A stretch of DNA of 64,000 nucleotides, taken from an uncultured Bacteroidales bacterium. GTDB taxonomy: Bacteria > Bacteroidota > Bacteroidia > Bacteroidales > Bacteroidaceae. Shown here in pieces: positions 5,685 through 40,425 of this stretch. Position numbers and translations under genes: made by a program. The DNA is taken from positions 23,310-87,309 of the forward strand of contig CACZAN010000033.1 in NCBI GenBank assembly GCA_902779165.1. The letters run 5' to 3'. The stretch's first letter is position 1. Every line of letters starts with the position of its first letter. The notes under the pieces were generated by a model, which saw only the letters and a list, made by a program, of their open reading frames with translations, did no database searches and was not told the origin of the DNA.

Positions 5685-6932
5685 ATGGCAACAATAAAAC
5701 CTTTCAAGGGCTTGCGTCCACCAAAAGACCTGGTCGAACAAGTGGAGAGCCGCCCCTACGACGTCCTCGAAAGTGAGGAGGCTCGCGCTGAGGCTGGTGA
5801 TAACGAGAAATCGCTGTATCACATCATCAAGCCTGAAATCAACTTCCCCGTCGGCACCAGCGAGTACGACCCACGCGTCTATGAGGAGGCTGCCCGTCAG
5901 TTCCAGATGTTCCAGGATAAGGGCTGGCTCGTGCAGGATAAGGAAGAACATTACTACATCTACGCCCAGACGATGAACGGTAAGACGCAGTATGGTCTTG
6001 TTATCGGAGCATACGTCGAAGACTACATGAACGGCGTCATTAAGAAGCACGAACTCACGCGCCGCGATAAGGAAGAGGACCGAATGAAGCACGTCCGCGT
6101 GAACAATGCCAACATGGAGCCCGTCTTCTTTGCCTACCCCGACAATGCAGTCCTCGATGCTCTGCTGAAGCGCTATGCCGCCACAGAGCCGGAGTATGAC
6201 TTTATTGCACCCATCGATGGCTTCGGCCATAAGTTCTGGATTGTCAGCGACCCCGCAGACATTGCCACCATCACAGAGGAATTCCGCAAGATGCCGTCGC
6301 TCTATATCGCTGACGGTCACCATCGTTCTGCAGCTGCTGCCCTCGTGGGTGCAGAGAAAGCCAAGCAGAATCCCAATCACCGCGGCGACGAGGAGTACAA
6401 CTACTTCATGGCTGTCGCTTTCCAGGCTTCTCAACTCACAATCCTCGACTACAACCGTGTGCTGAAGGATCTCAACGGCCTCACCTCTGAGCAGTTCCTC
6501 GATGCCATTCGCAAGAACTTCACCGTAGAAGACAAGGGAACGGAGATCTACAAGCCCGCAAAGCTCCATGAGTTCTCCCTTTACCTCGACGGCCACTGGT
6601 TCTCACTCGTAGCCAAGGATGGCACTTATGACAACAACGATCCCATCGGCGTGCTCGACGTGGACATCTCCAGCCGCCTCATCCTCGAAGAGATCCTGCA
6701 GCTGGGCGACCTCCGCAGCAGCAACCGCATCGACTTTGTTGGCGGCCTGCGCGGCTTGGCTGAGCTCAAGCGTCGTGTGGACAGTGGAGAAATGCGTGCC
6801 GCCCTCGCCCTCTATCCTGTCTCGATGCAGCAGATCATGGATATCGCCGATAGCGGCAAGATCATGCCTCCAAAGGCCACTTGGTTCGAGCCCAAACTCC
6901 GCAGCGGCCTGGTAGTGCATAAACTGAGTTAA
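5685..6932 (+). CDS. DUF1015 domain-containing protein
   Basis: The N-terminus MATIKPFKGLRPP...RPYDV is typical of DUF1015. The gene follows serC-serA, as is common in Bacteroidota. Confidence 0.75.
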   Translation: MATIKPFKGLRPPKDLVEQVESRPYDVLESEEARAEAGDNEKSLYHIIKPEINFPVGTSEYDPRVYEEAARQFQMFQDKGWLVQDKEEHYYIYAQTMNGKTQYGLVIGAYVEDYMNGVIKKHELTRRDKEEDRMKHVRVNNANMEPVFFAYPDNAVLDALLKRYAATEPEYDFIAPIDGFGHKFWIVSDPADIATITEEFRKMPSLYIADGHHRSAAAALVGAEKAKQNPNHRGDEEYNYFMAVAFQASQLTILDYNRVLKDLNGLTSEQFLDAIRKNFTVEDKGTEIYKPAKLHEFSLYLDGHWFSLVAKDGTYDNNDPIGVLDVDISSRLILEEILQLGDLRSSNRIDFVGGLRGLAELKRRVDSGEMRAALALYPVSMQQIMDIADSGKIMPPKATWFEPKLRSGLVVHKLS

Positions 6933-6934: not shown

Positions 6935-7088
6935 GACCCACCCCCTGCCCTCCCTGTAGGGAGGGAGCAATTACCTTTCAAGACTGGTCTTTATTTATTA
7001 AGAAGTCGTTATTGATAACTTAAATGAATGATAGCAATCTTTCAAAAGTAACCGCTCCCTCCCTAACAGGGAGGGCGGGGGGTGAGTC
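6935..7088. mobile_element. GC-hairpin MITE-like element, copy E1 (arms 6935-6968 and 7054-7088)
   Basis: The arms gacccaccccctgccctccctGTAGggagggagc and gctccctccctAACAgggagggcggggggtgagtc are inverted. The centre is AT-rich and contains the ATG at 7024. Confidence 0.8.
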
Positions 7089-7680
7089 TTTTGATTCCTA
7101 CCTTACCATCACCTCCCCTTCCTCGGGGCAATATACGGAGAAGCGAAGCAAGTTCCTTGCCTTCGCTTTTCCGGTTTCTAACGTTGAGGAGATAAAAAGC
7201 ATCCTTGAGGAATACCAGAAGAAATACTACGATGCCCGCCACGTTTGCTACGCCTATATGCTTGGCCATCAGCGCCTCACCTTCCGAGCCAATGACAACG
7301 GAGAGCCCAGCGGAACTGCTGGGAAGCCCATCCTCGGACAAATCAACAGCAACGAACTGACCGACATCCTCATCCTTGTTGTCCGCTATTTCGGCGGAGT
7401 CAAACTCGGCACCAGCGGACTCATCCAAGCCTACAAAGCTGCAGCCGCAGAAGCCATCGCTGCCTCCACAATCATCGAGAAGACGGTTGATGAGCAAATC
7501 ACCATTGCCTTCGAATACCCCCTGATGAACCAAGTCATGCGTGTCGTGAAGGAGGAGTCACCCTCCATCCTCTCTCAATCCTTCGATGGCGACTGCCTCA
7601 TGACCCTCTCCATTCGCGCCGGTCTCATGCCCCGCCTTCGTCAGCGCTTAGAGAAAATCGACGGCCTCCGCATCCCATGA
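7024..7680 (+). CDS. yigZ: YigZ/IMPACT family protein (UPF0029); first ~22 codons are encoded by repeat element E1
   Basis: The core KRSKFLAFAFPV...YDARHVCYAY...DNGEPSGTAG matches the YigZ family. The only in-frame start upstream of the conserved core is the ATG at 7024, inside the repeat. Confidence 0.8.
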   Translation: MNDSNLSKVTAPSLTGRAGGESFDSYLTITSPSSGQYTEKRSKFLAFAFPVSNVEEIKSILEEYQKKYYDARHVCYAYMLGHQRLTFRANDNGEPSGTAGKPILGQINSNELTDILILVVRYFGGVKLGTSGLIQAYKAAAAEAIAASTIIEKTVDEQITIAFEYPLMNQVMRVVKEESPSILSQSFDGDCLMTLSIRAGLMPRLRQRLEKIDGLRIP

Positions 7681-7910: not shown

Positions 7911-8723
7911 ATGCAGGCGGACAGTTTACAGCATTGGGTTGACCAGCAGATGATACGCGGAAAGTACATCTTTACGAAGGGAGATGTGCTGGCACAAGGA
8001 CTGTCGCTGACAGAGGAAAGTCTGAGGACGGCGTTGTCGAGATTGGTCAAGAAGGGGATGATTGTCTCTCCCTGGCAGAATTTCTATGTGACGGTGCCTA
8101 CGGAGTATCGGTTGAAGGGCGAGATACCGCCATCCTTCTATATCGACAGGCTAATGAAGCATCTGGGCAGGGATTATTACGTGTCTCTGCTGTCGGCTGC
8201 TGCGCTGAATGGTGCTGGGCATCAGCGGGCGATGGTGTTTCAGGTAACTGTCAATGGTGCGCCCATCCGTTCTGGAGTCAAGAATGGTGTAAGGCTTGAT
8301 TTCACACTTCGCAATCCACTCCCGATGGCTTCCGTGAAGCAGGTGAAGACCCAGATGGGATTCATGAATGTTTCATCACCAGAGCTGACAGCACTCGACC
8401 TGGTGTTTAATGAGGAGAAGGTGGGGGGGCTAAGCCGTGTGGCAGAGGTATTGATAGAACTGGCAGAGAACATGCATTTCGATGAATCCAGCGCAGACCT
8501 TCTCGCTTTCTTCAATGCACCTGTTATTCAGCGTTTGGGCTATCTGCTTGATTTGATTGAAGAACATGAGTTAGCCGACCGTCTGTTGATGCTGGCACAA
8601 AAGCAGGGAAAGCTGTTTAGAAAAATCCGTCTGAAGCAGTCGAAGTCCCAAACAGACGAGATGGCGATTGACGGCAGATGGAAGGTGGTTATCAATCAAG
8701 AAATAGAGACTGACGAAATATGA
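7911..8723 (+). CDS. abiEi: AbiEi-family antitoxin / transcriptional regulator (type IV TA system)
   Basis: N-terminal wHTH, a YYVSLLSAAALNGAGHQ segment and a C-terminal RWKVVINQEIETDEI tail are typical of Bacteroidales AbiEi. A 4-nt overlap links it to the abiEii remnant. Confidence 0.75.
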   Translation: MQADSLQHWVDQQMIRGKYIFTKGDVLAQGLSLTEESLRTALSRLVKKGMIVSPWQNFYVTVPTEYRLKGEIPPSFYIDRLMKHLGRDYYVSLLSAAALNGAGHQRAMVFQVTVNGAPIRSGVKNGVRLDFTLRNPLPMASVKQVKTQMGFMNVSSPELTALDLVFNEEKVGGLSRVAEVLIELAENMHFDESSADLLAFFNAPVIQRLGYLLDLIEEHELADRLLMLAQKQGKLFRKIRLKQSKSQTDEMAIDGRWKVVINQEIETDEI

Positions 8724-8914
8724 TACCAGAATTCTTTATCCAAGAATGGAAGGAGAAGGCTCCTTGGACTGAACCTTATATGGTGGAGCAGGATCTTATT
8801 ATCTGCCGCGCTCTGATAAGCATCTTCAGCGATGAACGTACAGTTAGTTCGTTCGGACGTATATACGTGAGGACCGAGACGTATATACGTAAAGGCGAAG
8901 ATGTATATATGTAA
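8720..8914 (+). pseudogene. abiEii: Truncated AbiEii nucleotidyltransferase toxin (only ~39 N-terminal codons are homologous)
   Basis: MIPEFFIQEWKEKAPWTEPYMVEQDLIICRALISIFSDE matches the AbiEii N-terminus. The reading frame then runs into the GTATATACG tandem array and stops before the NTase motif. Confidence 0.75.
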
Positions 8915-9014
8915 AGGGCGAAATGTATATACGTAAAGAACGTTACGTCCTCTCGTGGAAGATGTAACGGATTATCGTGGAGGACGTAACGGATTATTGC
9001 GGAGGACGTGACGG
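8855..9014 (+). repeat. Iteron-like array of ~22 bp units (GTATATACG-type units, then ACGGATTAT..GGAGGACGT-type units)
   Basis: There are four gtatatacg-containing units and then three taacggattatcgtggaggacg-like units. The array is homologous in inverted orientation to 29359-29548. Confidence 0.8.
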
Positions 9015-9020: not shown

Positions 9021-10202
9021 CTACAGCACTCCTTTGCTGGATGGGAGCTGCATGTGGTGGATGTCGCGACGGACTGCCATGCGGATAGCGCGGGCAAGGG
9101 CTTTGAAGATACCTTCGATCTTGTGGTGTTCGTTCTGTCCTTCGGCTTTGATGTTGAGGTTCATGCGAGCTGAGTCGCTGAGGCTCTTGAAGAAATGGAG
9201 GAACATCTCGGTGGGCATCTCGCCTACGCGTTCGCGGTAGAAGTCGGCTTGCCATACGAGCCAGGGGCGCCCTCCGAAGTCGAGGGCTACGGCGCAGAGG
9301 CAATCGTCCATCGGGAGGGTGTATTCAGCCGTGAGGTTGCTGGAGGAGAGGCTCTCGGCGGTGGAGGTTTCGGAGCTGAAACCATAACGTTCTATGCCGC
9401 GCTTGTCGCCAAGAGCTTTGAGGAGTGCTTCGCCGAGGGCGAGGGCGGTGTCTTCGATGGTGTGGTGCTCATCCACATGGAGATCGCCTTTTACTTGGAT
9501 GTCGAGGTCGATGCTGCCGTGCTTGGCAATTTGTTCGAGCATGTGGTCGAAGAATCCGAGGCCAGTGGAGATGTGGCTTTTGCCTGTGCCGTCGAGGTTC
9601 AGGCTGATAGCGATATCTGTTTCTTTTGTGGTGCGGGTGACGTCGGCGCGGCGGGGGCCTGCGTAAATGATTTCAACGGCTTTCTCCCAAGTGTAGCCTT
9701 CTCCGAGGATGACAGCCTGGCAGCCGAGGTTGGCGGCCAGCTGTGCATCGCTCTCGCGGTCGCCGATGACAAAGCTGTTCGCGAGGTCGAAGGAGCCGTC
9801 CAGGTAGGCGGTGAGCATGGCGGTGCCAGGCTTACGTGTGGGGAGGTTGTCCTCTGGGAAGCTGCGGTCGATGAGGATATCGTCGAAGGTGACGCCTTCT
9901 CCCTCAAGGATTTCCAGCATCAGGTTCTGTGTGGGCCAGAAGTCCTCCTCTGGATAGCTGGGTGTGCCGAGCCCGTCCTGATTCGAAACCATTACGAATC
10001 GGAAGTCGGTGTGTTGGCGCAGGAAGCGCAGGGCACTGATGGCTCCTGGTACGAAGTGGAACTTCTCGAAGGAATCGATCTGCTCGTCGGCCGGTTCCTG
10101 CAGGATTGTGCCATCGCGGTCGATGAATAAAAGACCCACCCCCGTACCCCTCCCGTCAGTGAGGGAGGCGGGCATGCGCATAGATTCTTTATCTTTAGTC
10201 AT
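9021..10202 (-). CDS. hisB: Bifunctional histidinol-phosphatase / imidazoleglycerol-phosphate dehydratase
   Basis: HAD motif FIDRDGT at the N-terminus and an IGPD domain at the C-terminus. The start is uncertain: either the ATG at 10202 or a GTG inside repeat arm E2. Confidence 0.9.
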
Positions 10203-12596: not shown

Positions 12597-12640
12597 TTGA
12601 TTTCACAATTTTACGATTTCACTATTTCACGATTTACCAC
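12597..12640. repeat. AT-rich 7-8 bp microsatellite (ATTTCAC/TTTACGA-type) immediately upstream of the hisD start
   Basis: The sequence is gatttcacaattttacgatttcactatttcacgatttacc. Confidence 0.7.
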
Positions 12641-12747
12641 TCGTCAACTTGTTAACTCGTCTACTTGTCAACTTGTCTACTTGTCTACTTGTCTACTTGT
12701 CTACTTGTCAACTTGTCTACTTGTCAACTTGTCAACTTGTCAACTTA
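12641..12747. repeat. Octanucleotide microsatellite (TTGTCAAC/TTGTCTAC, about 13-14 units) filling the hisG-hisD spacer
   Basis: It is directly visible as tcgtcaac ttgttaac tcgtctac ttgtcaac ttgtctac x4 ttgtcaac ttgtctac ttgtcaac x3. Confidence 0.9.
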
Positions 12748-13599
12748 TCAAAGAATCATCTTCTCAATAGGAATCACCAGGATACCTTGAGCTCCCAGTG
12801 CCTTCAGCTGCGAGATGACTTCCCAGAAACGTTTTTCGTCAATGACGGTGTGCACAGAGTTCCATCCAGGCGTGGCCAGTGGCATAACGGTGGGGCTCTT
12901 GGCTCCAGGCAGTACGGCGATCACGTCTTCCAGCCGTTCGCTGGGCACATTCATCAGTACATACTTCTTGTCTTCGGCAGCCTTCACGGCTTCGATGCGG
13001 AACAGCAGGTCATCGAGGATGGCTCGCTTTTCTGTGTCCATATTCTTGTTGGCGATGAGCAGTGCTTCGCTCTTCATCACCACTTCCACTTCGCGCAGGT
13101 TGTTGCTCACCAGCGTGCTGCCAGAAGAGACGATATCGAAGATAGCATCGGCAAGTCCGATTCCCGGACTTATTTCTACAGAACCCGTAATCACGTGGAT
13201 CTCAGCGTGGACACCTTTCTCTTCCAGGTAAGAGCGCAGGATGCCAGGATAGCTCGTGGCAATCTTTTTGCCCTCGAACCATTCCACGCCCGGATAATCG
13301 ATGCCTTTGGGAATTGCCAGCGAGAGACGGCATTTACTGAATCCCAATTTGCGAACAATATCTGCTTCTTCGTTGCGCTCGACAAACTCGTTCTCACCCA
13401 CGATACCGAGGTCTGCCACTCCAGTGGCCACACTCTGTGGGATGTCGTCGTCGCGCAGGTAAAGAACTTCAATGGGAAAATTCGAGGATTCAACAAGCAA
13501 GGTGCGCTTGCTCGAAGGGATTTTGATGCCCGCCTCGGCGAGCAGGGTCATCGTGTCTTCATACAGACGACCTTTGGATTGAACGGCGATGCGTATCAT
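12748..13599 (-). CDS. hisG: ATP phosphoribosyltransferase (long form)
   Basis: I trimmed the start to MIRIAVQSKGRL (ATG at 13599). A C-terminal regulatory domain is present. Confidence 0.85.
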   Translation of the reverse strand: MIRIAVQSKGRLYEDTMTLLAEAGIKIPSSKRTLLVESSNFPIEVLYLRDDDIPQSVATGVADLGIVGENEFVERNEEADIVRKLGFSKCRLSLAIPKGIDYPGVEWFEGKKIATSYPGILRSYLEEKGVHAEIHVITGSVEISPGIGLADAIFDIVSSGSTLVSNNLREVEVVMKSEALLIANKNMDTEKRAILDDLLFRIEAVKAAEDKKYVLMNVPSERLEDVIAVLPGAKSPTVMPLATPGWNSVHTVIDEKRFWEVISQLKALGAQGILVIPIEKMIL

Positions 13600-18300: not shown

Positions 18301-18707
18301 CCAGTAGAAGTGAACAATAGCTCGTCGTCGGAGAGGAAGACCAGGGGCGTCTCGGCTGAAGAACGGGTCGTCAGGCGGGTCACGTCGTCACCCTCTGCGG
18401 TCATCAAGTAAATATCCAGGCTTCCCTCGCGTTCGCTGGCGAAGGCGATGTGCTTTCCTGAAGGTGACCAGACGGGCAGTCCGTCCCAGGCGGCGTTGCT
18501 CGTCAGCTGACGAGCCTGCCCGCCTGAAGCAGATACGGTAAAGAGGTCGCCCTTATAGGCGAAACAGATGGTTAGGCCATCGGGTGAGATGGCGGCGGAG
18601 CGCAGCCAGAGGGGAGACTCTCCCCCCGCCCTCCCTTGTAGGGAGGGAGCGATTACTAATACACTTGTAATAGCTATTTTAAGCAAAAAATGTTGAATTG
18701 CTTTCAT
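15348..18707 (-). CDS. Tricorn-like S41 family peptidase (TolB-type beta-propellers + PDZ + S41 domain)
   Basis: WSPSGKHIAFAS propeller repeats, a PDZ segment and VVDVRHNGGGW (S41) are present. The signal peptide and the PSLQGRAGGES segment are encoded inside repeat element E3. There is an internal K/E/D low-complexity insert. Confidence 0.85.
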   Translation of the reverse strand: MKAIQHFLLKIAITSVLVIAPSLQGRAGGESPLWLRSAAISPDGLTICFAYKGDLFTVSASGGQARQLTSNAAWDGLPVWSPSGKHIAFASEREGSLDIYLMTAEGDDVTRLTTRSSAETPLVFLSDDELLFTSTGLPTVEDMQYPSNTYTHIYKVRTRAGARPERFSDLTVGNVTVGPGGSLIYDAVKGYEDPLRKHHTSSIARDLWQVSFARHQTADRKAGRPANFAEYQQLTQTASEDRCPVYVAQSQTLYWLSEANGTFNVWSQKLNGGGKAQRLTSFTEMPVRYLTASQDGTLCFSWDGELYTMKAGSSPKKVNIRITADTNEKEALHFVFTGGATQVAHSPKGKEIAFILGGDVYVTSLDYKTTVRITDSPTRERHVTFSEDGRSLVYDSERNGRWALYRVSIKQKDEKLFTYATELTEEERLTPEDQTCFEPEYSPDGKKIAFLRGRQELCVLDANTKAITTVMPGRFQYSYSDGDQSFAWSPNSKYLLSEYLGTGGWNLTDIALIPADGKGEIVNLTNSGYSESNPRWVLGGKAIIFQSDRAGMRSHGSWGSEDDIYITFLNSDAYERFNMNKEERERFDEAEKERKDKEKKEKEEKEKKDKKDKKDKDDEKAKKEREEQQAKEDSIKAANPVLDLRDLDLRTVGLTSNSGNIGDAVLNKEGTKLYYVATNYPNGPALWERDLEKGSTSIKAQGVSFSVFDLTGDGKIAYYASGGRIKKLEIEDGKISDVEFEAFHNDYPAGWRKQTFEHIWHQTHEKLYDPDMNGADWEMLHERYSRQLQYVGNTRDFAELCSEMLGELNVSHTGCRYRPSNGTGNTLTTADLGAFLDDTYNGDGLRIMELIPGSPLTRQQGVGAGSIITHIDGQAIKAGEDYYPLLSGKSGRYTRLTIKDSKGTAKDYTVRLQSNYTEGLYRRWVERNEHIVDSLSKGKLAYVHIESMNTASFHELYRKLLSDKNRTRDAVIVDVRHNGGGWLHNDVCELLSGVAVAQFTPRGQYIGDDPYNRWTKPSCMLVCEDDYSNAHGTPWLYKELGIGELIGAPVPGTMTAVWWETIDDIVFGIPQVGMRDRRGKYLENQQLEPDHLIISQPGDLLHGRDVQLERAVELMLKKK

Positions 18708-18774
18708 ATAGAAAAATGCTTTGAACTTGTTTGGTAACCACTCCCTCCCTTACAGGGAGGGCGGGGGATGGGTC
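18616..18774. mobile_element. GC-hairpin MITE-like element, copy E3 (arms 18616-18650 and 18740-18774)
   Basis: Same architecture as E1. The centre holds the start and signal peptide of the S41 peptidase gene. Confidence 0.75.
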
Positions 18775-18789
18775 TTTTTTTCTGCCTTA

Positions 18790-27605: not shown

Positions 27606-28930
27606 TGAGACGCCTGTTGCTGTTTGCCCTCATCTTATCGTCTGTGTTTCAGGCTCCTGCTCAGGAGCCCGACGGTGCTGTGCTGCCTTCCGACAGCCTC
27701 CTGCGCCGCAGCCTGCAGGAGCAGTTAGGCGTGGAGTTCACGGCAAACAACAGCGTGGTGCTGTTGCACACTGGTGCCCAAAAGTTCGATGCGCTGTTCT
27801 CGGCAATCCGTCAGGCGCGCCACTTCATTCATCTGGAATATTTCAACTTTCGCAACGATTCCATCGGAATGGCGCTGTTCGACTTGCTCGGGCTGAAAGC
27901 CAAGGAGGGAGTGGAAGTCCGCGCACTTTACGACAGCTTCGGTAACAGCAGCAACGACAGCCCCTTGAAGAACAAACACTTGCGGACCATCCGTCAAACG
28001 GGCGTACTGGTGGAGGAATACGATCCCATCAAGTTCCCGTGGGTCAATCACGCCTTTCACCGCGACCACCGCAAGATTGTGATCATAGACGGCGCCGTCT
28101 GTTACGCCGGTGGTATGAATGTGGCAGACTATTACATCCACGGCAAGCCTCAGTTCGGTGAGTGGCGGGATATGCACATGGAAATGACGGGCGATGTCGT
28201 GGCGCAGTATGAGGCCATATTTGCAAGGATGTGGTGGCAGCAGACGGGCGAAATCCTGCTCAACGAGATTTATGCGCCGCAGGCTGCCACGCCTTCGGAG
28301 TACAGTGCCAAGTTCCTTCCTGTAGTCCGTCCGGCTAATGATTTCCAGTTGCTTACAGACACCACCCCCTCAGCTGGAAAGAAACTTATTGGCGTGGTAG
28401 ACCGCAGACCTCATGAGGCATCGAAGTATATGAGGCAGGCTTACGTCGCTGCCATCGATGCCGCTCAGGACAGCATCCAGATTGTCAACCCCTATCCCAC
28501 GAATGTAAAGAGCGTCCGCAAAGCGCTGCGCAGGGCGCTGGAACGGGGCGTGAAGGTACAGATCATGGTTTCGGCGAAGAGCGATGTGCCCATTACTCCC
28601 GACGTGGTGGCATTGGAAATGAAGAAGTTGGCAAAGCGCGGAGCCGAAGTGCTCTATAACCAGACCGGCTTCCATCATTCCAAGGTGATGATGGTCGACG
28701 GGCGCTTCTGCACGATTGGCAGCACGAACCTCGACGGCCGCAGCTTCTTATGCGACTACGAAGTGAACAGCTTCATCCTCGACACCTGCACCACCCACCA
28801 GCTGCAGCAGCTCTTCGAGGCCGACCGCCGCCAGTGTACGCCGTTCCGTGCAGAGGATTACCGCAAGCTGTATAACTTCGGCCACCGCCTGACAGGACAT
28901 TTCTTCTCCCTCTTCCGCCGATTCTTCTGA
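27602..28930 (+). CDS. cls: Phospholipase D-family protein, cardiolipin synthase-like
   Basis: Two HKD motifs (HRKIVIIDG, HHSKVMMVDG) and an N-terminal signal/anchor. The last ~63 bp are duplicated at 29700-29762. Confidence 0.75.
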   Translation: MMRRLLLFALILSSVFQAPAQEPDGAVLPSDSLLRRSLQEQLGVEFTANNSVVLLHTGAQKFDALFSAIRQARHFIHLEYFNFRNDSIGMALFDLLGLKAKEGVEVRALYDSFGNSSNDSPLKNKHLRTIRQTGVLVEEYDPIKFPWVNHAFHRDHRKIVIIDGAVCYAGGMNVADYYIHGKPQFGEWRDMHMEMTGDVVAQYEAIFARMWWQQTGEILLNEIYAPQAATPSEYSAKFLPVVRPANDFQLLTDTTPSAGKKLIGVVDRRPHEASKYMRQAYVAAIDAAQDSIQIVNPYPTNVKSVRKALRRALERGVKVQIMVSAKSDVPITPDVVALEMKKLAKRGAEVLYNQTGFHHSKVMMVDGRFCTIGSTNLDGRSFLCDYEVNSFILDTCTTHQLQQLFEADRRQCTPFRAEDYRKLYNFGHRLTGHFFSLFRRFF

Positions 28931-28979
28931 CGCCCAACCCACCTCTTCTCCCAGTCTCATTCAACATAAAATAAAAACT

Positions 28980-29208
28980 TCAAGTTTCGCAAAGTGATGC
29001 CGTAGGCATCAGACAATGGTAGCCAGCCATTTCAATGGCTGGTAATGAGGATGTTGACGGATAGCGTGCCGTAGGTACGCGACAGGGATTACCAGCCATT
29101 GAAATGGCTGGCTACCATTGTCACGCCCCGCTGGGGCTTTGTATCACAGCTGGTTCTTCGAAGAGTCGAAGCGAACAAAGTTCGAGCGAGCATACTAGCA
29201 AAACTTGA
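28980..29208 (+). mobile_element. MITE-like nested-palindrome element, family 2, copy A (carries a ~35 bp internal insertion)
   Basis: Termini caagtttcg...cgaaacttg-like. Internal long stem gacaatggtagccagccatttcaatggctgg / ccagccattgaaatggctggctaccattgtc. Small palindromes gatgccgtaggcatc and gccccgctggggc. Confidence 0.8.
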
Positions 29209-29216
29209 ATAAAAAC

Positions 29217-29322
29217 TTTTTCTCAAAAATCCCCCGAATCCACCGATAATTCCCTCTGAAAACAGGTCTCAACAGACAAAACAAGGGCTTCAATCGGTGG
29301 ATTCGGGGGATTTTTGAGAAAA
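29217..29322. repeat. Perfect 30-bp inverted repeat with a 45-nt spacer
   Basis: ttttctcaaaaatcccccgaatccaccgat (29217-29247, endpoints hand-counted) pairs with atcggtggattcgggggatttttgagaaaa (29293-29322). Confidence 0.85.
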
Positions 29323-29358
29323 AATAATTAAATGAACACACCATAAATGCATTCGAAA

Positions 29359-29548
29359 CCCGTCACGTCTTCCGCTGTAATCCGTCACGTCCTCCGCTGT
29401 AATCCGTCACGTCTTCCGCTGTAATCCGTTACGTCTTCCGCTGTAATCCGTCACGCCTTCCGCAAAAGTACGTCACGGCCTCTGCCTATATACGTCCCGT
29501 CCCTCACGTCCATACGTCTCGTCCCTCACGTCTATATGTCTCCACGAG
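29359..29548 (-). repeat. Iteron-like ~22 bp array, inverted homologue of 8855-9014
   Basis: ccgtcacgtcttccgctgtaat occurs about five times, followed by acgtcccgtccctcacgtccat-type units. Confidence 0.8.
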
Positions 29549-29591
29549 TCTCACTAATGAGACAACCGCCTATAAGGGGATGAGTTGAACA

Positions 29592-29703
29592 AACTATACT
29601 TACTTCGACAAGTAACTATACTTCCACGCACGACCGAGTACTACTTCCACGCACGACCGAGTACTACTTCCCTGCACGACCGAGTACTACTTCCCCGTGC
29701 AGT
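29592..29703 (+). repeat. Tandem array of ~22-24 bp units (actacttccacgcacgaccgagt)
   Basis: There are about five units, three of them nearly perfect. The array abuts the duplicated cls 3' end. Confidence 0.8.
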
Positions 29704-29762
29704 ATAACCTCGGCCACCGCCAGACGGGACATTTCTTCTCCCTCTTCCGCCGGCTCTTCTGA
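29700..29762 (+). repeat. Displaced duplicate of the last ~63 bp of cls (compare 28868-28930), including the TGA stop
   Basis: By-eye alignment gives about 57 of 63 identical positions in direct orientation. Confidence 0.85.
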
Positions 29763-29923
29763 CAAATTCTGTGGCGTAGGGGGCATGTCAGCCAATAATC
29801 ATCTAATTATTTGAAACAGCTCGCCGACTTAGAGGGCGTGAGCCCCACCTCTTAGCCCCCTTTATATAGAGGGGGTCTTAGAGGGGGGCTGAGCCCGCTG
29901 ATATGACTAAGGGTGTAGGAAAA

Positions 29924-30000
29924 AAGATGCAGATATTATCGACATAAGATGCGAATCTTATTCCGAAAAGATCCTAATCCTATCGCCATAAGAACCTAAC
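29924..30000 (+). repeat. Degenerate ~22 bp tandem array (aagatgcNaatNttatc...)
   Basis: Three to four imperfect units run into MITE copy B. Confidence 0.5.
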
Positions 30001-30221
30001 TCAAGTTTCGATAGTATGCTAACCAGCTGTAATACAAAGCCCCAGCGGGGCGTGACAATGGTAGCCAGCCGTTTCAACGGCTGGTATATAGCGGCCAGGA
30101 AAAAGCGTGCCTTTAGGTATCGCGTACCTACGGCACGCTATACGTCAACATCCTCATTACCAGCCATTGAAATGGCTGGCTACCATTGTCTGATGCCTAC
30201 GGCATCACTTGCGAAACTTCA
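30001..30221 (-). mobile_element. MITE-like element, family 2, copy B (inverted relative to A, C and D)
   Basis: Reverse complement of the same consensus. It underlies the spurious ORF 30016..30387. Confidence 0.8.
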
Positions 30222-30335
30222 AAACCTAATCTTATTTGCAGCCCGAATAGGCGAAAATCGCCTGCAAAATTCACTTAGAGAGAGAATAATAACCACTTTT
30301 CTCCCTCTTTTTTTCTTCCTTTCGGAAAAAAGCAT

Positions 30336-30343
30336 TATCTTTG
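30336..30343 (+). promoter_or_regulatory. Candidate -7 box upstream of hsdM (long leader)
   Basis: tatctttg lies about 258 nt upstream of the ATG at 30601. Confidence 0.3.
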
Positions 30344-30600
30344 CAGCGAAATCATCGGTAGATGAACCTTCTGCCGCAATATCTTAACTGATATAACCAT
30401 AAATAAATATTTTAAAATCATCTCATTTAGGTTTTAATTTTTGGCTATCATCAACGCGCGAGCGCGAAGCCACTGTTTTAAATTCAAAATTTGTTCGGCA
30501 AGCCGTGCTCACGCTGCGATGAGCGTCACGAAACTCGGGATTTCGCACGGCTACAAAAGAATAGTTGAAGAAGTATATTGAGGAGAATTTCAAAAGAGAT

Positions 30601-32112
30601 ATGGCAAAAAAACAGACGAATACGACCTCAATAGGTTTTGAGGATGCGATATGGCGGGCAGCGGATAAGCTGCGCGGCAACCTGAATGCTTCGGAGTACG
30701 AAGGGGTGGTGCTGGGATTGATTTTCCTAAAGTACATCAGCGACAAGTTCGAGGCGAAGTACACGGAGTTGCTGCAGGAGCCCGATGCAGACGTAGAAGA
30801 CAAGGACGAGTACGAAGCCGACAACGTGTTCTTCGTTCCTCAAGACGCCCGCTGGCAGGTGATCAGCCTGGCGGCACACACGCCGCAAATCGGCAAGGTC
30901 ATCGACGATGCCTTGGAAGCCATAGAGCGGGAGAACCCGAAGCTGCGGGGTGTGCTCCCCTCTAATTATGCCCGCCCGGAATTGGATAAGCGGCGCTTGG
31001 GCGACGTGGTAGATCTCTTCACGAATATCCACATGCTGGCCTCCGGCGACGAACGGGACCTGCTGGGGCGCGTCTATGAATACTGCCTGCAGAAGTTCGC
31101 TTCGATGGAGGGCAAGAACGCCGGCGAATTCTACACCCCCAGCTGCATTGTCCGCACCATCGTAGAAATCCTGCAGCCCTACGAAGGCCGCGTCTATGAC
31201 CCCTGCTGCGGTTCGGGCGGTATGTTTGTGCAGAGCGCCAAGTTTATCTACAACCATCAGAAGGACATCAACAACATCAGCGTCTATGGTCAGGAGGCGA
31301 ACCCCTCGACGTGGAAGATGGCCCACATGAACGTTGCCATCCGAGGTCTGGAGGCCAACCTCGGCAAGTCGTATGCCGACACGTTCTTCAACGACCAGCA
31401 CCCCACGTTGAAGGCCGACTTCATCATGGCGAATCCGCCTTTCAACCTCAGCGACTGGGGCGCAGACAAACTGGAGAAAGACGTCCGTTGGAAGTTTGGT
31501 CTGCCGCCTGCCGGCAATGCGAACTTCGCCTGGATGCAGCACATGATTCACCACCTCTCGCCCACTGGCCGTATTGGCCTGGTATTAGCGAATGGTGCGC
31601 TCAGCTCTCAGACGGGCGGCGAGGGCGTGATCCGTCAGAAGATTGTGGAGGCCGACTTGGTGGAAGGTATCATCGCCTTGCCCTCGCAGCTGTTCTACAG
31701 CACGGGCATTCCCGTCTCTCTCTGGTTCCTCTCTCGCAACAAACAGCAGGCTGGCAAGACGCTGTTCATTGACGCTCGCAATATGGGAACAATGGTGACC
31801 CGCGCCGTGCGTGAGTTGATGGCGGAGGATATCCAGAAGATTGCCGAAACCTTCGACCAGTTCCGCAACGGCACCCTTGAAGATGAGAAAGGTTTCTGCG
31901 CCGTCCGTTCCCTCGAAGACATCGCCGCGCAAGATTTCATCCTCACTCCAGGCCGCTATGTAGGCATCGCCGAGCAGGAAGATGACGGCGAGCCCTTTGC
32001 CGAGAAGATGCAGCGCCTGACCTCAGAACTGAGTGGACTCTTTAAGGAGAGCCACCGACTGGAGGAGGAGATCAGGAAGCAACTCGGTAGCATAGGATTT
32101 GAAATCAAGTAA
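30601..32112 (+). CDS. hsdM: Type I restriction-modification system, DNA methyltransferase subunit M
   Basis: I trimmed the start to the ATG at 30601. HsdM N-terminal domain (FEDAIWRAADKLRG), AdoMet motif DPCCGSGG and catalytic NPPF. Confidence 0.9.
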   Translation: MAKKQTNTTSIGFEDAIWRAADKLRGNLNASEYEGVVLGLIFLKYISDKFEAKYTELLQEPDADVEDKDEYEADNVFFVPQDARWQVISLAAHTPQIGKVIDDALEAIERENPKLRGVLPSNYARPELDKRRLGDVVDLFTNIHMLASGDERDLLGRVYEYCLQKFASMEGKNAGEFYTPSCIVRTIVEILQPYEGRVYDPCCGSGGMFVQSAKFIYNHQKDINNISVYGQEANPSTWKMAHMNVAIRGLEANLGKSYADTFFNDQHPTLKADFIMANPPFNLSDWGADKLEKDVRWKFGLPPAGNANFAWMQHMIHHLSPTGRIGLVLANGALSSQTGGEGVIRQKIVEADLVEGIIALPSQLFYSTGIPVSLWFLSRNKQQAGKTLFIDARNMGTMVTRAVRELMAEDIQKIAETFDQFRNGTLEDEKGFCAVRSLEDIAAQDFILTPGRYVGIAEQEDDGEPFAEKMQRLTSELSGLFKESHRLEEEIRKQLGSIGFEIK

Positions 32113-32116
32113 GGTT

Positions 32117-32698
32117 ATGGAAGAGAACAAAAATACAACAATATTGGCTGAACAGCAGAATAAAGTACTGTTTCAGGATGTTTGTCTGATTATAGATCAA
32201 GCTCAAGCCTACGCTTACCGTTTGGTCAACGAAACGCTGATAAAGCGTAACTGGCTGCTGGGGATGCGCATTCAGCATGATGTACTGCAAGGACAGCGCG
32301 CAGAATATGGAGAACAGACCATTCGAAGATTAGCTGTTCAATTAATAGAAAAGTATGGTGATAGCTTTAGTCGGAGAAACCTGTATTACTATTTAGATTT
32401 CTACAAGTCATTCCCAAACTTTTTCCACGCAGTGAGCGGAAAATCTATTGAAAAACAAATTGTGAACACAGCGCGTTCACAATCTGGAGACAATCTAAAA
32501 AACATTTTGAACTCACTGCGTGCAAAATCTCCAATTAAACTTTCATGGACCCATTACCGTATTATTTTACAGGAGAATACGGAAAGAGGCAGAGTGTGGT
32601 ATGAGCAGGAGGCTGCGCGCGAAATGTGGAGTACACGTACTTTGCCGCTAAGTACCTTACATATATGCCTACAAAAGAGGAACTGCGTCGAGAGATAG
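32117..32698 (+). pseudogene. YhcG/DUF1016 PDDEXK-nuclease remnant (N-terminal domain only; nuclease core deleted, C-terminal tail in another frame)
   Basis: The DUF1016_N-like segment ends at ...YEQEAAREMWSTRTL. The typical tail YMPTKEELRREIEQQKEFF follows out of frame (about 32650-32741). Confidence 0.65.
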
Positions 32699-32784
32699 AA
32701 CAGCAGAAAGAATTCTTCCGTCTGCAACATAAGGAGGATTGACTTTGGAATAGTGGAAGGAATATAAACAGATTTTTCTCATTT

Positions 32785-33303
32785 ATGGAAGAGAACAAGA
32801 ATATAGAAAAAGTGGATGTGCTTTTTGAAAAAGTAGCAAAACTCATTGTTCAGTCCCGCCAAAGAGTGGCTTCTGCGATTAATCTGGCAGAGGTGTATAC
32901 CAAATACCGCATTGGACAATATATCGTGGAGTATGAGCAACGAGGTAATGTTCGAGCCGAATATGGTAAGCAAGTTCTAAGAGATTTGTCTGCAAGACTA
33001 ACACAACGATTTGGAGAGGGATGGTCTTATCCTTCAATGAAAAATATTAGGCAATTCTATCAGGTATATTCCGAAAAGCTAAACGGTGTTTATCCTATCG
33101 ATGATGAAAAGGCTAAACAGCGTTTAGCCAATTCTGATATTATAAGCATAACACAAAATGATGCGTTGGTGGAGTTGACTTTGCCAAAAGAAGCGAATAT
33201 CTATGCCACAGCCTATCAACTCTATTTGCCGGATAAAGCTTTGCTTCAGGCAAAAGTGAAAGAGTGGATTGAAGAGTTTAACGAAAAAGAACAGGAAGAA
33301 TGA
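32785..33303 (+). CDS. Second YhcG/DUF1016 derivative: N-terminal domain fused in frame to the family C-terminal tail, nuclease core missing
   Basis: N-terminal segment RVASAINLAEVYTKYRIGQYIVEYEQRGNVRAEYGKQVLRDLSARL is followed by ...YQLYLPDKALL. An ATGA overlap links it to hsdS. Confidence 0.6.
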   Translation: MEENKNIEKVDVLFEKVAKLIVQSRQRVASAINLAEVYTKYRIGQYIVEYEQRGNVRAEYGKQVLRDLSARLTQRFGEGWSYPSMKNIRQFYQVYSEKLNGVYPIDDEKAKQRLANSDIISITQNDALVELTLPKEANIYATAYQLYLPDKALLQAKVKEWIEEFNEKEQEE

Positions 33304-34463
33304 TGGAAGAGTGGAAGGAATATAAAATAAAGGATGCGACGTCTATTTTGGGTGACGGTATTCACGGAACCCCTAAATATGATGAAGGAGGCTCTGTGTA
33401 TTTCATTAATGGTAACAATCTTGAAAATGGAAAAATTGTTATTCGTGAAAACACAAGACGAGTATCTTTAGTAGAAGCATTAAAACATCAAAAACCACTT
33501 ACAGATAGGACTATCTTTGTATCCATCAATGGTACACTTGGTAATGTTGCCAGATACAATGGTGAGCCGTGTATACTAGGAAAGAGCGCTTGTTATTTCA
33601 ATGTAAAGGAAGAATTTGATGTAAACTTCATGTATTATGTTGTGGCGAATAGCAAATTCCGAAAGGAAATAGAAAGACTTGCTACAGGAACAACCATAAA
33701 AAATGTGTCGTTAGAAACAATGCGCAACTATACATTCTTCGCGCCCTCTTTGTTAGAACAGAAGAAAGTAGCTGCCATCCTCTCCTCCCTCGATGATAAA
33801 ATCGAGTTGAATCGTCGCATCAATGAGAATTTGGAGGCTCAAGCTCAGGCTTTGTTCAAGTCGTGGTTGTCCGGATGTCATTCAGAAGTAACGATTGGCG
33901 AATTATCCATGAATATAACAGACTATACAAAATGTGATCTGCCTAAGGTTGTACTTGTAAACAGCAGCGATGTTACAGAGGGGCATTTTGAACATCACAA
34001 TTATTCAGAAAACAAAAACCTCAAAGGACATTTCAAGAAAAGATTTCAAAAGGGATACATCTTGTATTCTCAGGTGCGTCCCAGAAATCGACATTGGGGT
34101 TATTGCAATTTTGATGCTGATGCTTATCTTGCTTCAACTCAGTTAATGGTTATCAGAAATCGTGCTGAATTAATATCAAGTATTTTACTTTATCAATATC
34201 TAATAGATGATGAAGTTTGGATGGATTTTACAAATAAGACAGAGACACGTTCAGGAACGTTTCCACAAGGTAACTATGAAGAAATAGCAGCTATAAAAGT
34301 TCGTTTCGGAACTGATATAGCTCAAATTACTAATGAATTGGAGAGTATGTATGCACTGATATACAATAATGAGCAAGAATCCCACCGTCTCGCGGCCCTT
34401 CGCGACACCCTTTTGCCTCGCTTGATGTCAGGTGAAATAAAAGTAGGTGATGTGACGTTATAA
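33300..34463 (+). CDS. hsdS: Type I R-M specificity subunit S (two target-recognition domains)
   Basis: Conserved central and C-terminal coiled regions (LEQKKVAAILSSLDDKIELNRRINENLEAQAQALFKSW; RLAALRDTLLPRLMSGEI). The gene is AT-rich relative to its flanks. Confidence 0.85.
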   Translation: MMEEWKEYKIKDATSILGDGIHGTPKYDEGGSVYFINGNNLENGKIVIRENTRRVSLVEALKHQKPLTDRTIFVSINGTLGNVARYNGEPCILGKSACYFNVKEEFDVNFMYYVVANSKFRKEIERLATGTTIKNVSLETMRNYTFFAPSLLEQKKVAAILSSLDDKIELNRRINENLEAQAQALFKSWLSGCHSEVTIGELSMNITDYTKCDLPKVVLVNSSDVTEGHFEHHNYSENKNLKGHFKKRFQKGYILYSQVRPRNRHWGYCNFDADAYLASTQLMVIRNRAELISSILLYQYLIDDEVWMDFTNKTETRSGTFPQGNYEEIAAIKVRFGTDIAQITNELESMYALIYNNEQESHRLAALRDTLLPRLMSGEIKVGDVTL

Positions 34464-34481
34464 TATAAAGGTGTATTTGGT

Positions 34482-35489
34482 ATGGCAGAGAAAGAGAATA
34501 AATTGATCTTGTATCAAGATGCTGAAGGACAAGTGAACGTGAATGTTCGCTTTGCCGATGAAGATGTGTGGCTGACACGCGAGCACCTTGCAGAGATTTA
34601 TGCGACCACCCCTCAGAATATCAGCCTTCACGTTGGCAACATTTATCAAGACAAGGAATTGGAGGAAGATGGAACTCGAAAGAAATTCTTTCTAGTTCGT
34701 CAAGAGGGTAAGCGGCAGGTGCAAAGAGAAATCGACCATTACAATTTGGACATGATTATCGCCTTGGGCTATCGCGTGCAGTCACCTATAGCTGTGCGTT
34801 TCCGTCGTTGGGCTACTCAGCGGCTGCACGAATACATCCAGAAGGGTTTCACGATGGACGACGAGCGTCTGAAGCAGGGCGGCAACCGCTATTTCAGGGA
34901 GTTGCTGCAGCGCATTCGCGACATCCGCAGCAGTGAACGCAATTTCTACCAGCAAGTGACGGATATCTATGCCACCAGCATTGACTATGACCCTCGTGCA
35001 CATATTACAAAGCTGTTCTTTGCCACCGTGCAGAACAAGATGCACTATGCCGTGCATGAGCATACCGCAGCAGAACTGATCTATGAGCGTGTGGACAACG
35101 AGAAGCCCTTCGTAGGGATGACCAACTTCAAAGGGAACTACGTAACACGCGATGACGTGAAAATTGCCAAGAACTACCTGACAGAAATAGAGCTGCAACG
35201 CTTGAACCTGCTCACTTCACAGTTCCTTGACTATGCTGAGTTTCAGGCTCTGGAACAAAACCCCATGAGGATGGCCGACTGGATTGCTGCGCTCGATGAT
35301 CAGATACTCCGTTTGCGCAAGAACATCCTCGAAGGCAGCGGCACCATCTCCCATCAAGAGGCTATTGAGAAGGCCGAACGGGAATTTGAAATCTACCGCG
35401 AGCGGGAGATGCGCCTGCTGGAAAGCGATTTCGACAGAGCCGTCAAGCGACTGCGAGATAAAGGCGAGGGACATGATGAAGATGCCTGA
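34482..35489 (+). CDS. rhuM: RhuM-family (virulence protein RhuM-like) protein
   Basis: Strong family resemblance along the full length (LILYQDAEGQVNVNVRF..., IIALGYRVQSPIAVRFRRWATQRL, SERNFYQQVTDIY). Confidence 0.8.
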   Translation: MAEKENKLILYQDAEGQVNVNVRFADEDVWLTREHLAEIYATTPQNISLHVGNIYQDKELEEDGTRKKFFLVRQEGKRQVQREIDHYNLDMIIALGYRVQSPIAVRFRRWATQRLHEYIQKGFTMDDERLKQGGNRYFRELLQRIRDIRSSERNFYQQVTDIYATSIDYDPRAHITKLFFATVQNKMHYAVHEHTAAELIYERVDNEKPFVGMTNFKGNYVTRDDVKIAKNYLTEIELQRLNLLTSQFLDYAEFQALEQNPMRMADWIAALDDQILRLRKNILEGSGTISHQEAIEKAEREFEIYREREMRLLESDFDRAVKRLRDKGEGHDEDA

Positions 35490-35532
35490 TGCCGGGTGAA
35501 CTGAAAGTAAATGAAGTTGAAAATATTGTGAT

Positions 35533-39700: not shown

Positions 39701-39878
39701 ACAGGCGCTGAGGACGGTGATGGAGCAGTGCAACCGCTGGGCTGACGACGAGGAGAATCTGGAAACGCCCGTAGTTCCTCTGCATTCGATTCGCTACGAT
39801 GATTATTCGGTCGAAGAAGATGGCGGCTACCTGATGGCGGCAGAGAAGGAGGATGATTACGGTCCGTACGATGAATAG
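36702..39878 (+). pseudogene. hsdR: Type I R-M restriction subunit R with an in-frame TAG at codon 40 (36819-36821)
   Basis: MTDNFTENDYEQALIALFQKLGYDYECGYDVERDFRSPY-stop-EDLRLALRKQNP continues in the same frame. The downstream nuclease motif (DLVVFVNGLPLVVVELK) and SF2 helicase motifs (HTQGSGKS, TDEAHRSQ) are intact. Confidence 0.85.
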
Positions 39879-39989
39879 GAAGCAACCAAACTCTTGTTGA
39901 TAAGCGCTTTACTCAAAAGTTGGACAGTTATGCGATTCAATTGAAAAACTCTCCGAAAGCACGTGCTTTCTGTGCCGCAGCAAAAAAAA

Positions 39990-40063
39990 CTTATTTAGTG
40001 GTGACGGCGTCAGTCATGATTGCCAGTTCCTCTTTGGAGAAGTGGGAGGCGAGGAGGGAGCGG
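39990..40063 (-). repeat. Displaced duplicate of the last ~74 bp of the TPR gene (compare 40553-40626), including the stop
   Basis: By-eye alignment gives about 72 of 74 identical positions in direct orientation. The copy reads ...SLLASHFSKEELAIMTDAVTTK-stop. Confidence 0.85.
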
Positions 40064-40075
40064 AATGGAGAAAAA

Positions 40076-40189
40076 TTAGTTATAGGTATTATCCTTGCTT
40101 ATCTGCTCTAAAAATTCGACTATCGTCAAGACATTCAACCTCGGCCATTCAATCTCCTTGAGAATACTGAAATGGGAGTCGTTTGTCAC
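40076..40189 (-). pseudogene. C-terminal remnant of a PIN-domain (VapC-like) toxin
   Basis: The frame reads VTNDSHFSILKEIEWPRLNVLTIVEFLEQI, which resembles the (I/L)VTxDxHF...I.T..EFL end of PIN_3 toxins. No N-terminal part is present. Confidence 0.45.
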
Positions 40190-40397: not shown

Positions 40398-40425
40398 ATT
40401 GGCTATATTTGATTGGACTTCGGTG

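Follow-up and report, generated by a model that had tools for sequence, protein, structure and literature searches.

Phased 22-bp arrays beside hisB and cls

The window, i.e. the whole 64-kb stretch of DNA analysed here (G/C content 53.5%), contains two tandem arrays with phased 22-bp units, 8857-9014 and 29357-29548, both of them close to the 3' end of a housekeeping gene (Table 1). The first array begins 6 nt past the hisB stop codon (9021-9023) and thus abuts it, as had been described before; the second lies ~430 bp past the cls stop codon (at 28930), with a MITE copy and a long hairpin in between. TRF reports the 22-bp period in two blocks on the hisB side (8859-8938 and 8953-9014) and in two blocks on the cls side (29360-29463 and 29489-29542), and when the sequences are printed in a single 22-bp register these form one continuous phased array of ~8-9 units at each locus. 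The period of ~22 bp and the phasing at two helical turns given in the first-pass annotation are therefore borne out, and so is its claim that 8855-9014 and 29359-29548 are homologues in inverted orientation (70-73% identity, E~1e-25, no such match in shuffles): in the blastn self-comparison 8849-9014 aligns with 29547-29382 over 166 nt (70.5%, E=9e-26), and 8876-9014 matches 29404-29542 over 139 nt with 73% identity. A pattern describing the unit with up to 3 mismatches has 7 matches in the window, all of them inside the two arrays, and none in 100 shuffles.

Both unit types share the core AT-N-CGTC-N-CGTC, which covers 13 of the 22 positions in one register, and the order of the unit types is collinear between the two arrays. 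Read from hisB outward, the hisB-side array consists of ~3 units CCGT(C/T)ACGTCCTCC..ATAAT, one transitional unit and four units with ACGTATATACGT (on the plus strand, four units with ACGTATATACGT, one transitional unit and 2-3 units ACGGATTA..GGAGGACGT); the cls-side array consists of five units CCGTCACGTCTTCCGCTGTAAT, one transitional unit and then ~2.5 units ACGTCTCGTCCCTCACGTCCAT. The C/G ratio of the gene-sense strand is 2.1 at both arrays. Compared to shuffled sequence, the sense RNA of the cls side is less structured (z=+1.5), and the RNA of the hisB side is somewhat structured (z=-2.6) because of its ACGTATATACGT palindromes. The cls-side array is identical in contigs L011 and L012, the hisB-side array differs from that in L002 by one substitution, and the indel differences between the window and L011 are confined to MITEs.

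Further arrays had been proposed downstream of the cls-side copy, and this holds for the 23-bp array at 29619-29694; the stretch at 29924-29993 is weak, its unit is unrelated and it has no similarity to the module described below, either by blastn or by nhmmer. A third patch, previously placed at 62703-62803, could be retained as a weak nhmmer homologue, which is recovered also with a model built solely from loci outside the window (E=1e-4); however, it is invisible to blastn in the self-comparison of the window, and it is not located at a gene 3' end, lying instead between divergent genes beside a MITE copy.

Table 1. Features in and around the arrays, with position in the window, strand and basis of the assignment
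Feature	Position	Strand	Basis
AbiE cargo: abiEi (7911-8723) and first ~39 codons of abiEii (8720-8836)	7911-8836	+	Pfam AbiEi_1
Remnant of module spacer and of first 23-bp unit (CCGAACGAACTAACTGTACG)	8836-8856	-	multi-locus alignment, L002 sequence
hisB-side phased 22-bp array	8857-9014	-	TRF, self-comparison, nhmmer E=9e-44
Functional cls 3' end, 65 bp including stop; repeated at 29699-29763	28867-28931	+	self-comparison
MITE copy between cls stop and module	28966-29155	.	self-comparison
Long hairpin element, ~38-nt arms, ahead of array	29208-29333	+	inverted repeat
cls-side phased 22-bp array	29357-29545	+	TRF, self-comparison, nhmmer E=2e-75
Palindrome GAGTCTCAC-TAA-TGAGAC between 22-bp and 23-bp arrays	29546-29563	+	sequence, multi-locus alignment
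Conserved spacer (ACCGCC.ATA.GGGGATGAGTTGAACAAACTATAC) and one degenerate 23-bp unit	29564-29618	+	multi-locus alignment
23-bp array TACTTCCACGCACGACCGAGTAC, 3.3 copies	29619-29697	+	TRF
Displaced, decaying copy of cls 3' end	29699-29763	+	self-comparison, translation vs orthologue C-termini
Weak 22-bp array, 71% matches, unrelated unit, adjoining MITE copy	29924-29993	+	TRF
Further MITE copies	29998-30235, 61459-61653, 62354-62551		self-comparison
Type I restriction-modification (R-M) cargo: hsdM, two DUF1016_N fragments, hsdS, RhuM, Fic, hsdR	30565-39878	+	Pfam
Displaced copy of TPR-gene 3' end, 74 bp, 97%	39990-40063	-	self-comparison
Third, strongly decayed homologue of the 22-bp array	62704-62807	-	nhmmer E=6e-6

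A non-coding module at the head of variable islands

The arrays are the gene-proximal, fast-evolving part of a larger non-coding module, in which an occasional hairpin, the 22-bp array, a palindrome GAGTCTCAC-N2-4-GTGAGAC, a 23-bp array, a terminator and a Bacteroidetes-type promoter follow one another. We found this module 3' of four genes, namely hisB (in the window, L002, L001 and the sister-species contig L023), cls (in the window, L011 and L012), an ompA-like gene (L021) and alaS (L031), as well as on contig L020, which breaks inside the module. The evidence base is thus four flanking-gene loci on metagenome contigs: a scan of metagenomes with the 23-bp unit yielded two loci, L020 and L021, and the alaS locus was recovered via a homologue search with a spurious ORF overlapping the module tail. 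Homology is collinear across all copies (alignment and nhmmer model), all copies are intergenic and their arrays spacerless. Unit counts vary by copy, from 2.2 to ~9 in the 22-bp array and from 2.3 to 3.7 in the 23-bp array, the latter being the best-conserved repeat of the module across loci, and the palindrome form GAGTCTCAC-N2-GTGAGAC with 9-bp arms is kept in L021, L020, L001 and L031. The arrays are flanked by a hairpin on one side (window cls side and L021, with 80% identity between the two long hairpins, the latter following the ompA-like gene) and by the tail with terminator and promoter on the other (91-98% in L001, L023, L021, L020 and L031).

The module always stands ahead of variable cargo, i.e. 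genes for surface proteins, toxin-antitoxin pairs and defence genes, and this cargo differs from locus to locus (AbiE, type I R-M, MBG_2 proteins, BspA-type LRR proteins, YhcG/NOV_C/AbiH, MNT-HEPN). In L021, the stop codon of the ompA-like gene is followed by the long hairpin, the 22-bp array, the palindrome, the spacer, the 23-bp array, a hairpin with T-run and the promoter (TTTG ... TATCTTTG), and then by a ~400-nt leader and the gene of a 1265-aa BspA-type LRR protein. L020 has tail and promoter as in L021, followed by YhcG, NOV_C and AbiH genes, and in L031 (sister species) the module is found after alaS and before an MNT-HEPN pair and MBG proteins. In the alignment of the copies, cargo joins the module at four positions. 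On the hisB side of the window the junction is ahead of the 23-bp array and on the cls side immediately behind it; in L020 and L031 it is found past the -7 box, and in L001, L021 and L023 within the leader. The description of the arrays as lying beside 3' ends of housekeeping genes, at the gene-proximal edge of strain-variable accessory DNA, is confirmed, and homologous arrays indeed head other islands at other loci. Their common polarity relative to the adjoining gene, pointed out earlier for the two window arrays, is likewise seen in both window copies, L001, L023, L021 and L031; however, it carries little weight as evidence, since it is automatic for a head-to-cargo island between convergent genes. 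For polarity, only the AbiE allele with its reversed cargo is informative, and there the module is truncated.

At the hisB locus, hisB and yigZ are convergent, and two alleles are found between them among contigs of the same species. The HisB sequence matches, with 99% identity, a protein found on 24 contigs, mainly from cattle-rumen metagenomes, the more distant matches being Bacteroidales or Bacteroidaceae MAGs. In allele (a), hisB is followed by the array, an intact abiEii and abiEi (L002, L006, L009); in allele (b), by a different array copy and a 6-kb surface-protein island (L001 and at least six other contigs among the matches listed). Past the hisB stop codon, allele (b) contains decayed 22-bp units, two good units, two palindromes GTCTCAC-N2-GTGAGAC and the 23-bp array TACTTCCACGCACGACCAAGTAC, which is the order of elements found on the cls side of the window. 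In the sister species (hisB 89% identical at the amino acid level), the module at hisB stands ahead of an LRR protein (L023). The window represents allele (a) with a 682-bp deletion inside abiEii (the missing part being L002 11351-12033; AbiEii of L002 is intact, 267 aa), and its module is truncated where the abiEii cassette starts. The earlier statement that the array cuts off abiEii was not upheld, because in other strains hisB and the array occur together with an intact abiEii. An insertion of the array into abiEii was considered as well, and rejected in view of these intact neighbours and the mapped deletion.

The cls/TPR spacer is a true insertion hotspot, with 153 bp vs 11.6 kb between the two genes. 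In L026/L027 (sister species, cls 79% identical at the amino acid level) cls and the TPR gene are convergent and only 153 bp apart, and therefore window positions 28931-40553, up to the TPR gene (40554-42854, minus strand), represent an 11.6-kb island. The type I R-M system is absent at this empty site, and its 153-bp spacer is made up of 24-bp and 21-bp tandem repeats, which (in L026) have no significant similarity to the module. None of 43 contigs contains an empty site of the same species; L026/L027 belong to another species and lack the whole 11.6-kb island. Within the island, a displaced cls 3' end (65 bp, 91% identical, with the stop codon kept at the same position and more decayed than the working copy) lies directly 3' of the 23-bp array, and at the opposite island end this is mirrored by a displaced TPR-gene 3' end, 490 bp from the real one. 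As the displaced cls 3' end separates the arrays from the R-M genes, the R-M segment arrived separately; on this ground we discarded the possibility that the R-M island ends in the arrays. The simplest reading of the empty site and the nested duplications of gene 3' ends is a stepwise accretion by recombination, in which an R-M segment with short cls and TPR ends from a diverged donor would have recombined into the cls locus and landed between a pre-existing module beside cls and a small ORF beside the TPR gene.

Rates of evolution and rival explanations

Comparing L001 with L023, we observed 74% identity for the 22-bp array (with 18 gap columns) and 67% for the palindromes, and 66-73% at the four-fold degenerate sites of hisB, hisC, hisD, hisG and prs; from the 23-bp array through the inverted-repeat element, terminator and promoter, the two contigs are 97-98.6% identical over ~446 nt. 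Between sister species, the evolution of the 22-bp array is thus close to neutral. At paralogous unlinked loci the arrays are 48-79% identical, compared to 80-98% for the tail. The 22-bp arrays are the least constrained part of the module, with the exception of the first three hisB-proximal units, which are identical at 55 of 62 positions between species (89%, P=2.5e-4 vs neutral 69%). This conservation hints at some constraint, and it speaks against the explanation we favour below. The tail of the module is either strongly constrained or was recently exchanged, the high-identity stretch starting at the palindrome, where the identity between L001 and L023 jumps from 67-74% to 98%. A crossover site, too, could account for such a step from diverged to near-identical sequence, which is again at odds with the favoured explanation.

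With a probability of roughly 45%, the best explanation appears to be a dispersed non-coding repeat of modular build, of which the two arrays represent the fast-evolving part in paralogous copies; this would be a minisatellite-bearing intergenic repeat of the BrickBuilt type that heads accessory cassettes. Its occurrence is limited to a single lineage of uncultured rumen Bacteroidales, the source samples being the STEW19 rumen samples and JGI 3300038345. From the housekeeping-gene stop codon onward, the module in full consists of an optional terminator hairpin, 5-9 phased 22-bp units, all with the core AT-N-CGTC-N-CGTC, the palindrome with 9-bp arms, 2-4 units of the 23-bp repeat, a hairpin with T-run as terminator and a promoter (TTTG ... 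TAtcTTTG) reading into the strain-variable cargo. It would be copied, along with cargo or beside it, into the spacers that separate convergent core genes, its unit numbers may shift by slippage or unequal exchange, and terminator and promoter would insulate and express the cargo. The copies in the window would then be truncated heads whose own tails were replaced, on the hisB side by the AbiE pair and on the cls side by the recombined-in segment with cls/TPR 3' ends and the type I R-M system. This mode of spread is inferred, and the 22-bp units presumably have little or no sequence-specific function. As neither terminal inverted repeats nor target-site duplications are definable for the module, MITE-like transposition is unproven. 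The units within an array are heterogeneous and their order is kept between paralogues, unlike in a freshly homogenised minisatellite, which tells against a BrickBuilt-type repeat; they could be ordered binding sites.

The main rival, which comes close to the chief idea of the first-pass annotation, is a recombination site, with the palindrome as crossover, the 22- and 23-bp arrays as putative arm-type sites, a recombinase encoded elsewhere and the islands as CIME-type non-autonomous elements. We regard it as doubtful. The arrays do flank a conserved palindrome with 9-bp arms, their units recur in phase every two helical turns with one core in common, they are located at the edges of variable islands and at gene 3' ends, the cls-side module lies between the two copies of a 65-bp direct repeat of the cls 3' end, and the identity jump between L001 and L023 falls at the palindrome. 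However, our Pfam searches, which covered every island ORF and most of the large ORFs in the window, revealed no integrase, transposase, rep or par gene and no tyrosine or serine recombinase in the six islands or the 64-kb window, there is no partner site, i.e. no matching array, at the far end of any island, and a duplicated gene end was found at neither hisB nor the ompA-like gene (target-end direct repeats occur at cls, 65 bp and 91%, and at the TPR gene, 74 bp and 97%). Also, the cargo junctions, distributed over four module positions, have no fixed crossover point in common, the palindrome is missing from the hisB-side window copy, and the 22-bp array is near neutral between species. Overlap regions of tyrosine recombinases are 6-8 bp, for which the 2-4 bp palindrome spacer is too short. 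For these reasons the earlier interpretation of the arrays as recombinase arm or partition-protein binding sites is not supported; of the related integrative element thought to be inserted at two loci, the island edge at gene 3' ends remains, without any mobility gene. Searching for an intact element with these arrays was equally negative: exact two-unit and palindrome-plus-spacer patterns, the latter fitting all known copies, gave 0 matches in GTDB representatives, and none of the islands found contains an integrase. The window has no tRNA gene, so it does not contain a tRNA-targeted island.

Alternatively, the units might bind a transcription factor or a nucleoid protein, or act as a C-rich unstructured RNA tract, and thereby would insulate the island from the upstream gene or tune the downstream promoter. 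This regulatory or insulating array is unlikely in our view and ranks behind the recombination site. Its position is suggestive, always 5' of the terminator-promoter tail and in a single orientation, and the C/G ratio of 2.1, the weakly structured sense RNA of the cls side (z=+1.5) and the above-neutral conservation of the hisB-proximal units would agree with such a role, as would the promoter activity of BrickBuilt segments (PMC4596501). On the other hand, the distance between array and promoter varies from ~110 to ~350 bp between loci, because the inverted-repeat element intervenes in L001, L023 and L031; the window copies persist without tail or promoter; and the unit sequences, including the ACGTATATACGT palindrome, are not kept between copies. 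Moreover, a terminator hairpin is found ahead of the array at three loci, so that read-through transcription is not assured, and for the same reason a function in Rho utilisation or as a 3'-UTR is weakened. Rfam contains no matching family (window at gathering thresholds; L001, L020 and L021 at E<=1).

Less probable again is the idea that the module is the cis platform of an integron-like cassette capture, with the 22-bp array and the palindrome as candidate landing site, the recombinase encoded elsewhere, and terminator and promoter expressing the captured cassette; the cassettes captured immediately 3' of core genes would be defence systems, toxin-antitoxin pairs and variable surface proteins. 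It is very improbable that the arrays are iterons or centromere repeats of an integrated plasmid or phage-plasmid, i.e. a replication origin or partition site. Contiguous 22-bp direct repeats in 5-9 copies do resemble the R6K gamma origin, and the two-helical-turn phasing is real, but no rep or par gene was found near any copy, the window contains no DnaA-box-like site, the array is not A/T-rich (G/C content 0.45-0.52 vs 0.535 in the window) and at hisB the module is stably inherited by vertical descent in two species. In addition, blastn against 72,556 plasmids and 50,697 phages gave no match, and IMG/VR no real one; its single hit, L022, was rejected as a chance match within a phage coding region that lacks the array.

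Least credible of all is an inversion of the 20.3-kb block from hisB to cls mediated by the two arrays, which had been suggested by their inverted homology on either side of this block. All 12 junction-crossing contigs (L001-L010 across hisB, L011-L012 across cls) are in the reference arrangement, and the proposed synteny check for an inverted 9.0-29.3 kb segment returned the reference order in same-species contigs and, with the gene order of the window unchanged, in the sister species. No invertase gene was found, and with 70-73% identity and a longest common exact word of 16 bp the two arrays are a poor substrate for homologous recombination.

The present result is a well-documented, lineage-specific repeat family with a putative function. 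If the module does head cassettes, it would serve in rumen Bacteroidales as a simple marker, at the sequence level, of loci with strain-variable defence or surface-protein genes, i.e. of loci that, lacking an integrase, would be overlooked by island finders, and the BrickBuilt type of minisatellite would extend beyond Porphyromonas and be tied to a portable terminator-promoter unit. Should the arrays bind a trans-acting recombinase, they would be part of a new gene-capture route in a major gut phylum, and if the recombination-site explanation were true, of a system like an integron platform.

Comparison with known repeat systems

The R6K gamma origin has a classic iteron array of contiguous ~22-bp direct repeats. 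The module shares with such plasmid iterons the contiguous, in-phase direct repeats of ~22 bp in several copies; it differs in lacking a rep gene, a DnaA box, an A/T-rich region and any plasmid or phage homologue, and in being chromosomal and vertically inherited. With arm-type integrase sites and CIMEs it has in common repeats beside a palindromic core, an island boundary at a gene 3' end and, at cls, a direct repeat; in contrast to them, there is neither an integrase nor a second arm, the direct repeat occurs at one locus only and the junctions are variable. Pneumococcal BOX elements and enterobacterial BIMEs are modular intergenic repeats with a variable number of internal tandem subunits, non-coding and often located 3' of genes. 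The module resembles them in all of these respects; compared by description only, BOX elements and BIMEs differ in being based on RNA or DNA stem-loops, and they are not known to be linked to variable cargo or a promoter.

Integrase-free hotspots of defence islands between core genes are known from the E. coli pan-genome (PMC10121019). Like the islands headed by the module, they hold variable defence cargo between conserved core genes with no recognisable mobility gene; unlike these islands, they are not known to have a conserved repeat module, or a promoter heading the cargo, at one of their edges.

BrickBuilt of Porphyromonas gingivalis, described by Klein et al. 2015 as a minisatellite/MITE, has 23-nt units in tandem, without spacers, between a conserved leader and a conserved tail, and its 19 copies are always intergenic (PMC4596501). 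It is lineage-restricted, shows promoter activity, differs in unit number between copies, nests with MITEs and often adjoins T9SS cargo genes; each unit has a conserved and a variable half, and up to 22.8 units are found at 95% identity (PMC4596501). The module belongs to the same order, Bacteroidales, and likewise consists of spacerless tandem repeats (23 nt in BrickBuilt, 22 and 23 nt here), with units divided into a conserved and a variable half, conserved non-repetitive flanks and a promoter in the flank. Both are strictly intergenic, multi-copy and lineage-restricted, with varying unit number and common partial copies, and in both MITEs are nested or adjacent and genes for secreted surface proteins are frequent neighbours. 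The differences lie in the unit sequences, which are unrelated, in the arrays of the module being short (2-9 units), heterogeneous and ordered whereas those of BrickBuilt are homogeneous, in the presence of two different arrays separated by a palindrome, and in the consistent position of the module just past a stop codon, heading strain-variable cargo. No homology to the BrickBuilt unit AGACCATAGTATCCTCTCATATG was detected (the best cyclic match covers 9-11 of 22-23 positions, shuffle p>=0.36), and inspection of the aligned ends gave no sign of IS5-like terminal inverted repeats (GAGACCTTTGCA); the left end (AAACCCGTCAC) does not recur in inverted form at any of the right ends. TTTGCAAAAAG was seen as a terminus only in L001, L023 and L031, where it ends the separate inverted-repeat element. 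Taken together, the architecture is BrickBuilt-like but neither the unit sequence nor the IS5-like ends are matched, so that the module works like BrickBuilt without being a member of its family. BrickBuilt is its closest known analogue, in architecture only.

The conserved tail and an inverted-repeat element of the module

On the 3' side of its arrays, the module continues into a conserved tail, in which CTCTGATGCGAGATAG... is followed by a hairpin with a T-run and then by a Bacteroidetes-type promoter. Across unlinked loci the tail is 91-98% identical, and its conservation exceeds that of four-fold degenerate sites in the flanking genes. In three contigs (L001 and L023, the hisB locus of the same and of a sister species, and L021, an ompA-like gene locus) a leader of ~400 nt lies between the tail and BspA-LRR or MBG surface-protein genes. 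Rfam gave no match for the tail, which may represent either a hitherto unknown small RNA or a 5' UTR with a structured fold.

Within the module we also found an inverted-repeat element with the ends TTTGCAAAAAG and three subterminal AACACTCCG repeats in each arm. At hisB and at alaS, which are different loci, it occupies the same position within the module; it therefore spread as a component of this subfamily of the module.

Positions of the repeats, tails and island features
Feature	Contig	Positions
Conserved tail	L001	11601-12183
	L023	9690-10165
	L021	8440-8890 (minus)
	L031 (sister-species alaS)	7985-8130 (minus)
	L020 (breaks inside module)	6720-6850 (minus)
Inverted-repeat element, ~215 bp	L001	11386-11600
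	L023	9446-9660
	L031	8150-8345
MITE, ~200 bp, 4 copies	window	28966-29155, 29998-30235, 61459-61653, 62354-62551
G/C-rich palindromic elements	window	6941-7091, 18609-18779, 43785-43961, 50422-50564, 61325-61378
Intergenic arrays, period 21-24 bp	L026	4133-4240, 8877-8936
	L024	10917-10970
	L028	11168-11214
25-bp array, 4.8 copies, 69% matches	window	62233-62353
hisG-hisD spacer, 8-bp repeats, ~150 bp	window	12599-12770
TPR-gene 3'-end duplicates, 74 bp, 97% identical	window	39990-40063, 40553-40626
82-aa ORF	window	40149-40397
Tandem DUF1016_N-only ORFs, 199 and 172 aa	window	32099-33303
Their repeated 5' ends	window	32115-32150, 32783-32818

Dispersed repeats and short tandem arrays

The MITE has the sequence GACAATGGTAGCCAGCC.TTTCAA.GGCTGGTA..., and many short-read contigs of the window's species end inside it just 3' of cls. 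Comparing the window with L011, a same-species contig across cls, we found that the cls-MITE region differs only by indels within the MITE copies. The G/C-rich palindromic elements (CCCCCGCCCTCCCTGTAGGGAGGGAG...) form a family whose members occur in pairs at the 3' ends of genes and resemble dispersed repeats of the terminator type.

Arrays with a 21-24-bp period, built from unrelated units, occur in further intergenic spacers of related Bacteroidales, among them the 'empty' cls/TPR site (L026); ~22-bp minisatellites seem to be common in this lineage. The 25-bp array (unit TTTGTCGTAATCTGCCAAATATAAC) directly adjoins a MITE copy and lies upstream of the DUF4199 gene. The window's hisG-hisD spacer consists of (GACAAGT[TA]) ~14x and then (GTGAAAT[CA]) ~4x; in three other strains of the species (L001, L002, L003) it measures 30 bp and is unrelated to these repeats.

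Ends and cargo of the R-M island

The duplicated TPR 3' ends enclose a 490-bp segment, whose 82-aa ORF has no Pfam match. This duplication mirrors that of the cls 3' end and suggests that the R-M island came with short ends of its flanking genes. Within the type I R-M operon, the two DUF1016_N-only ORFs, with their repeated 5' ends, probably represent pieces of a YhcG-like nuclease gene; the island of L020 is headed by an intact YhcG.
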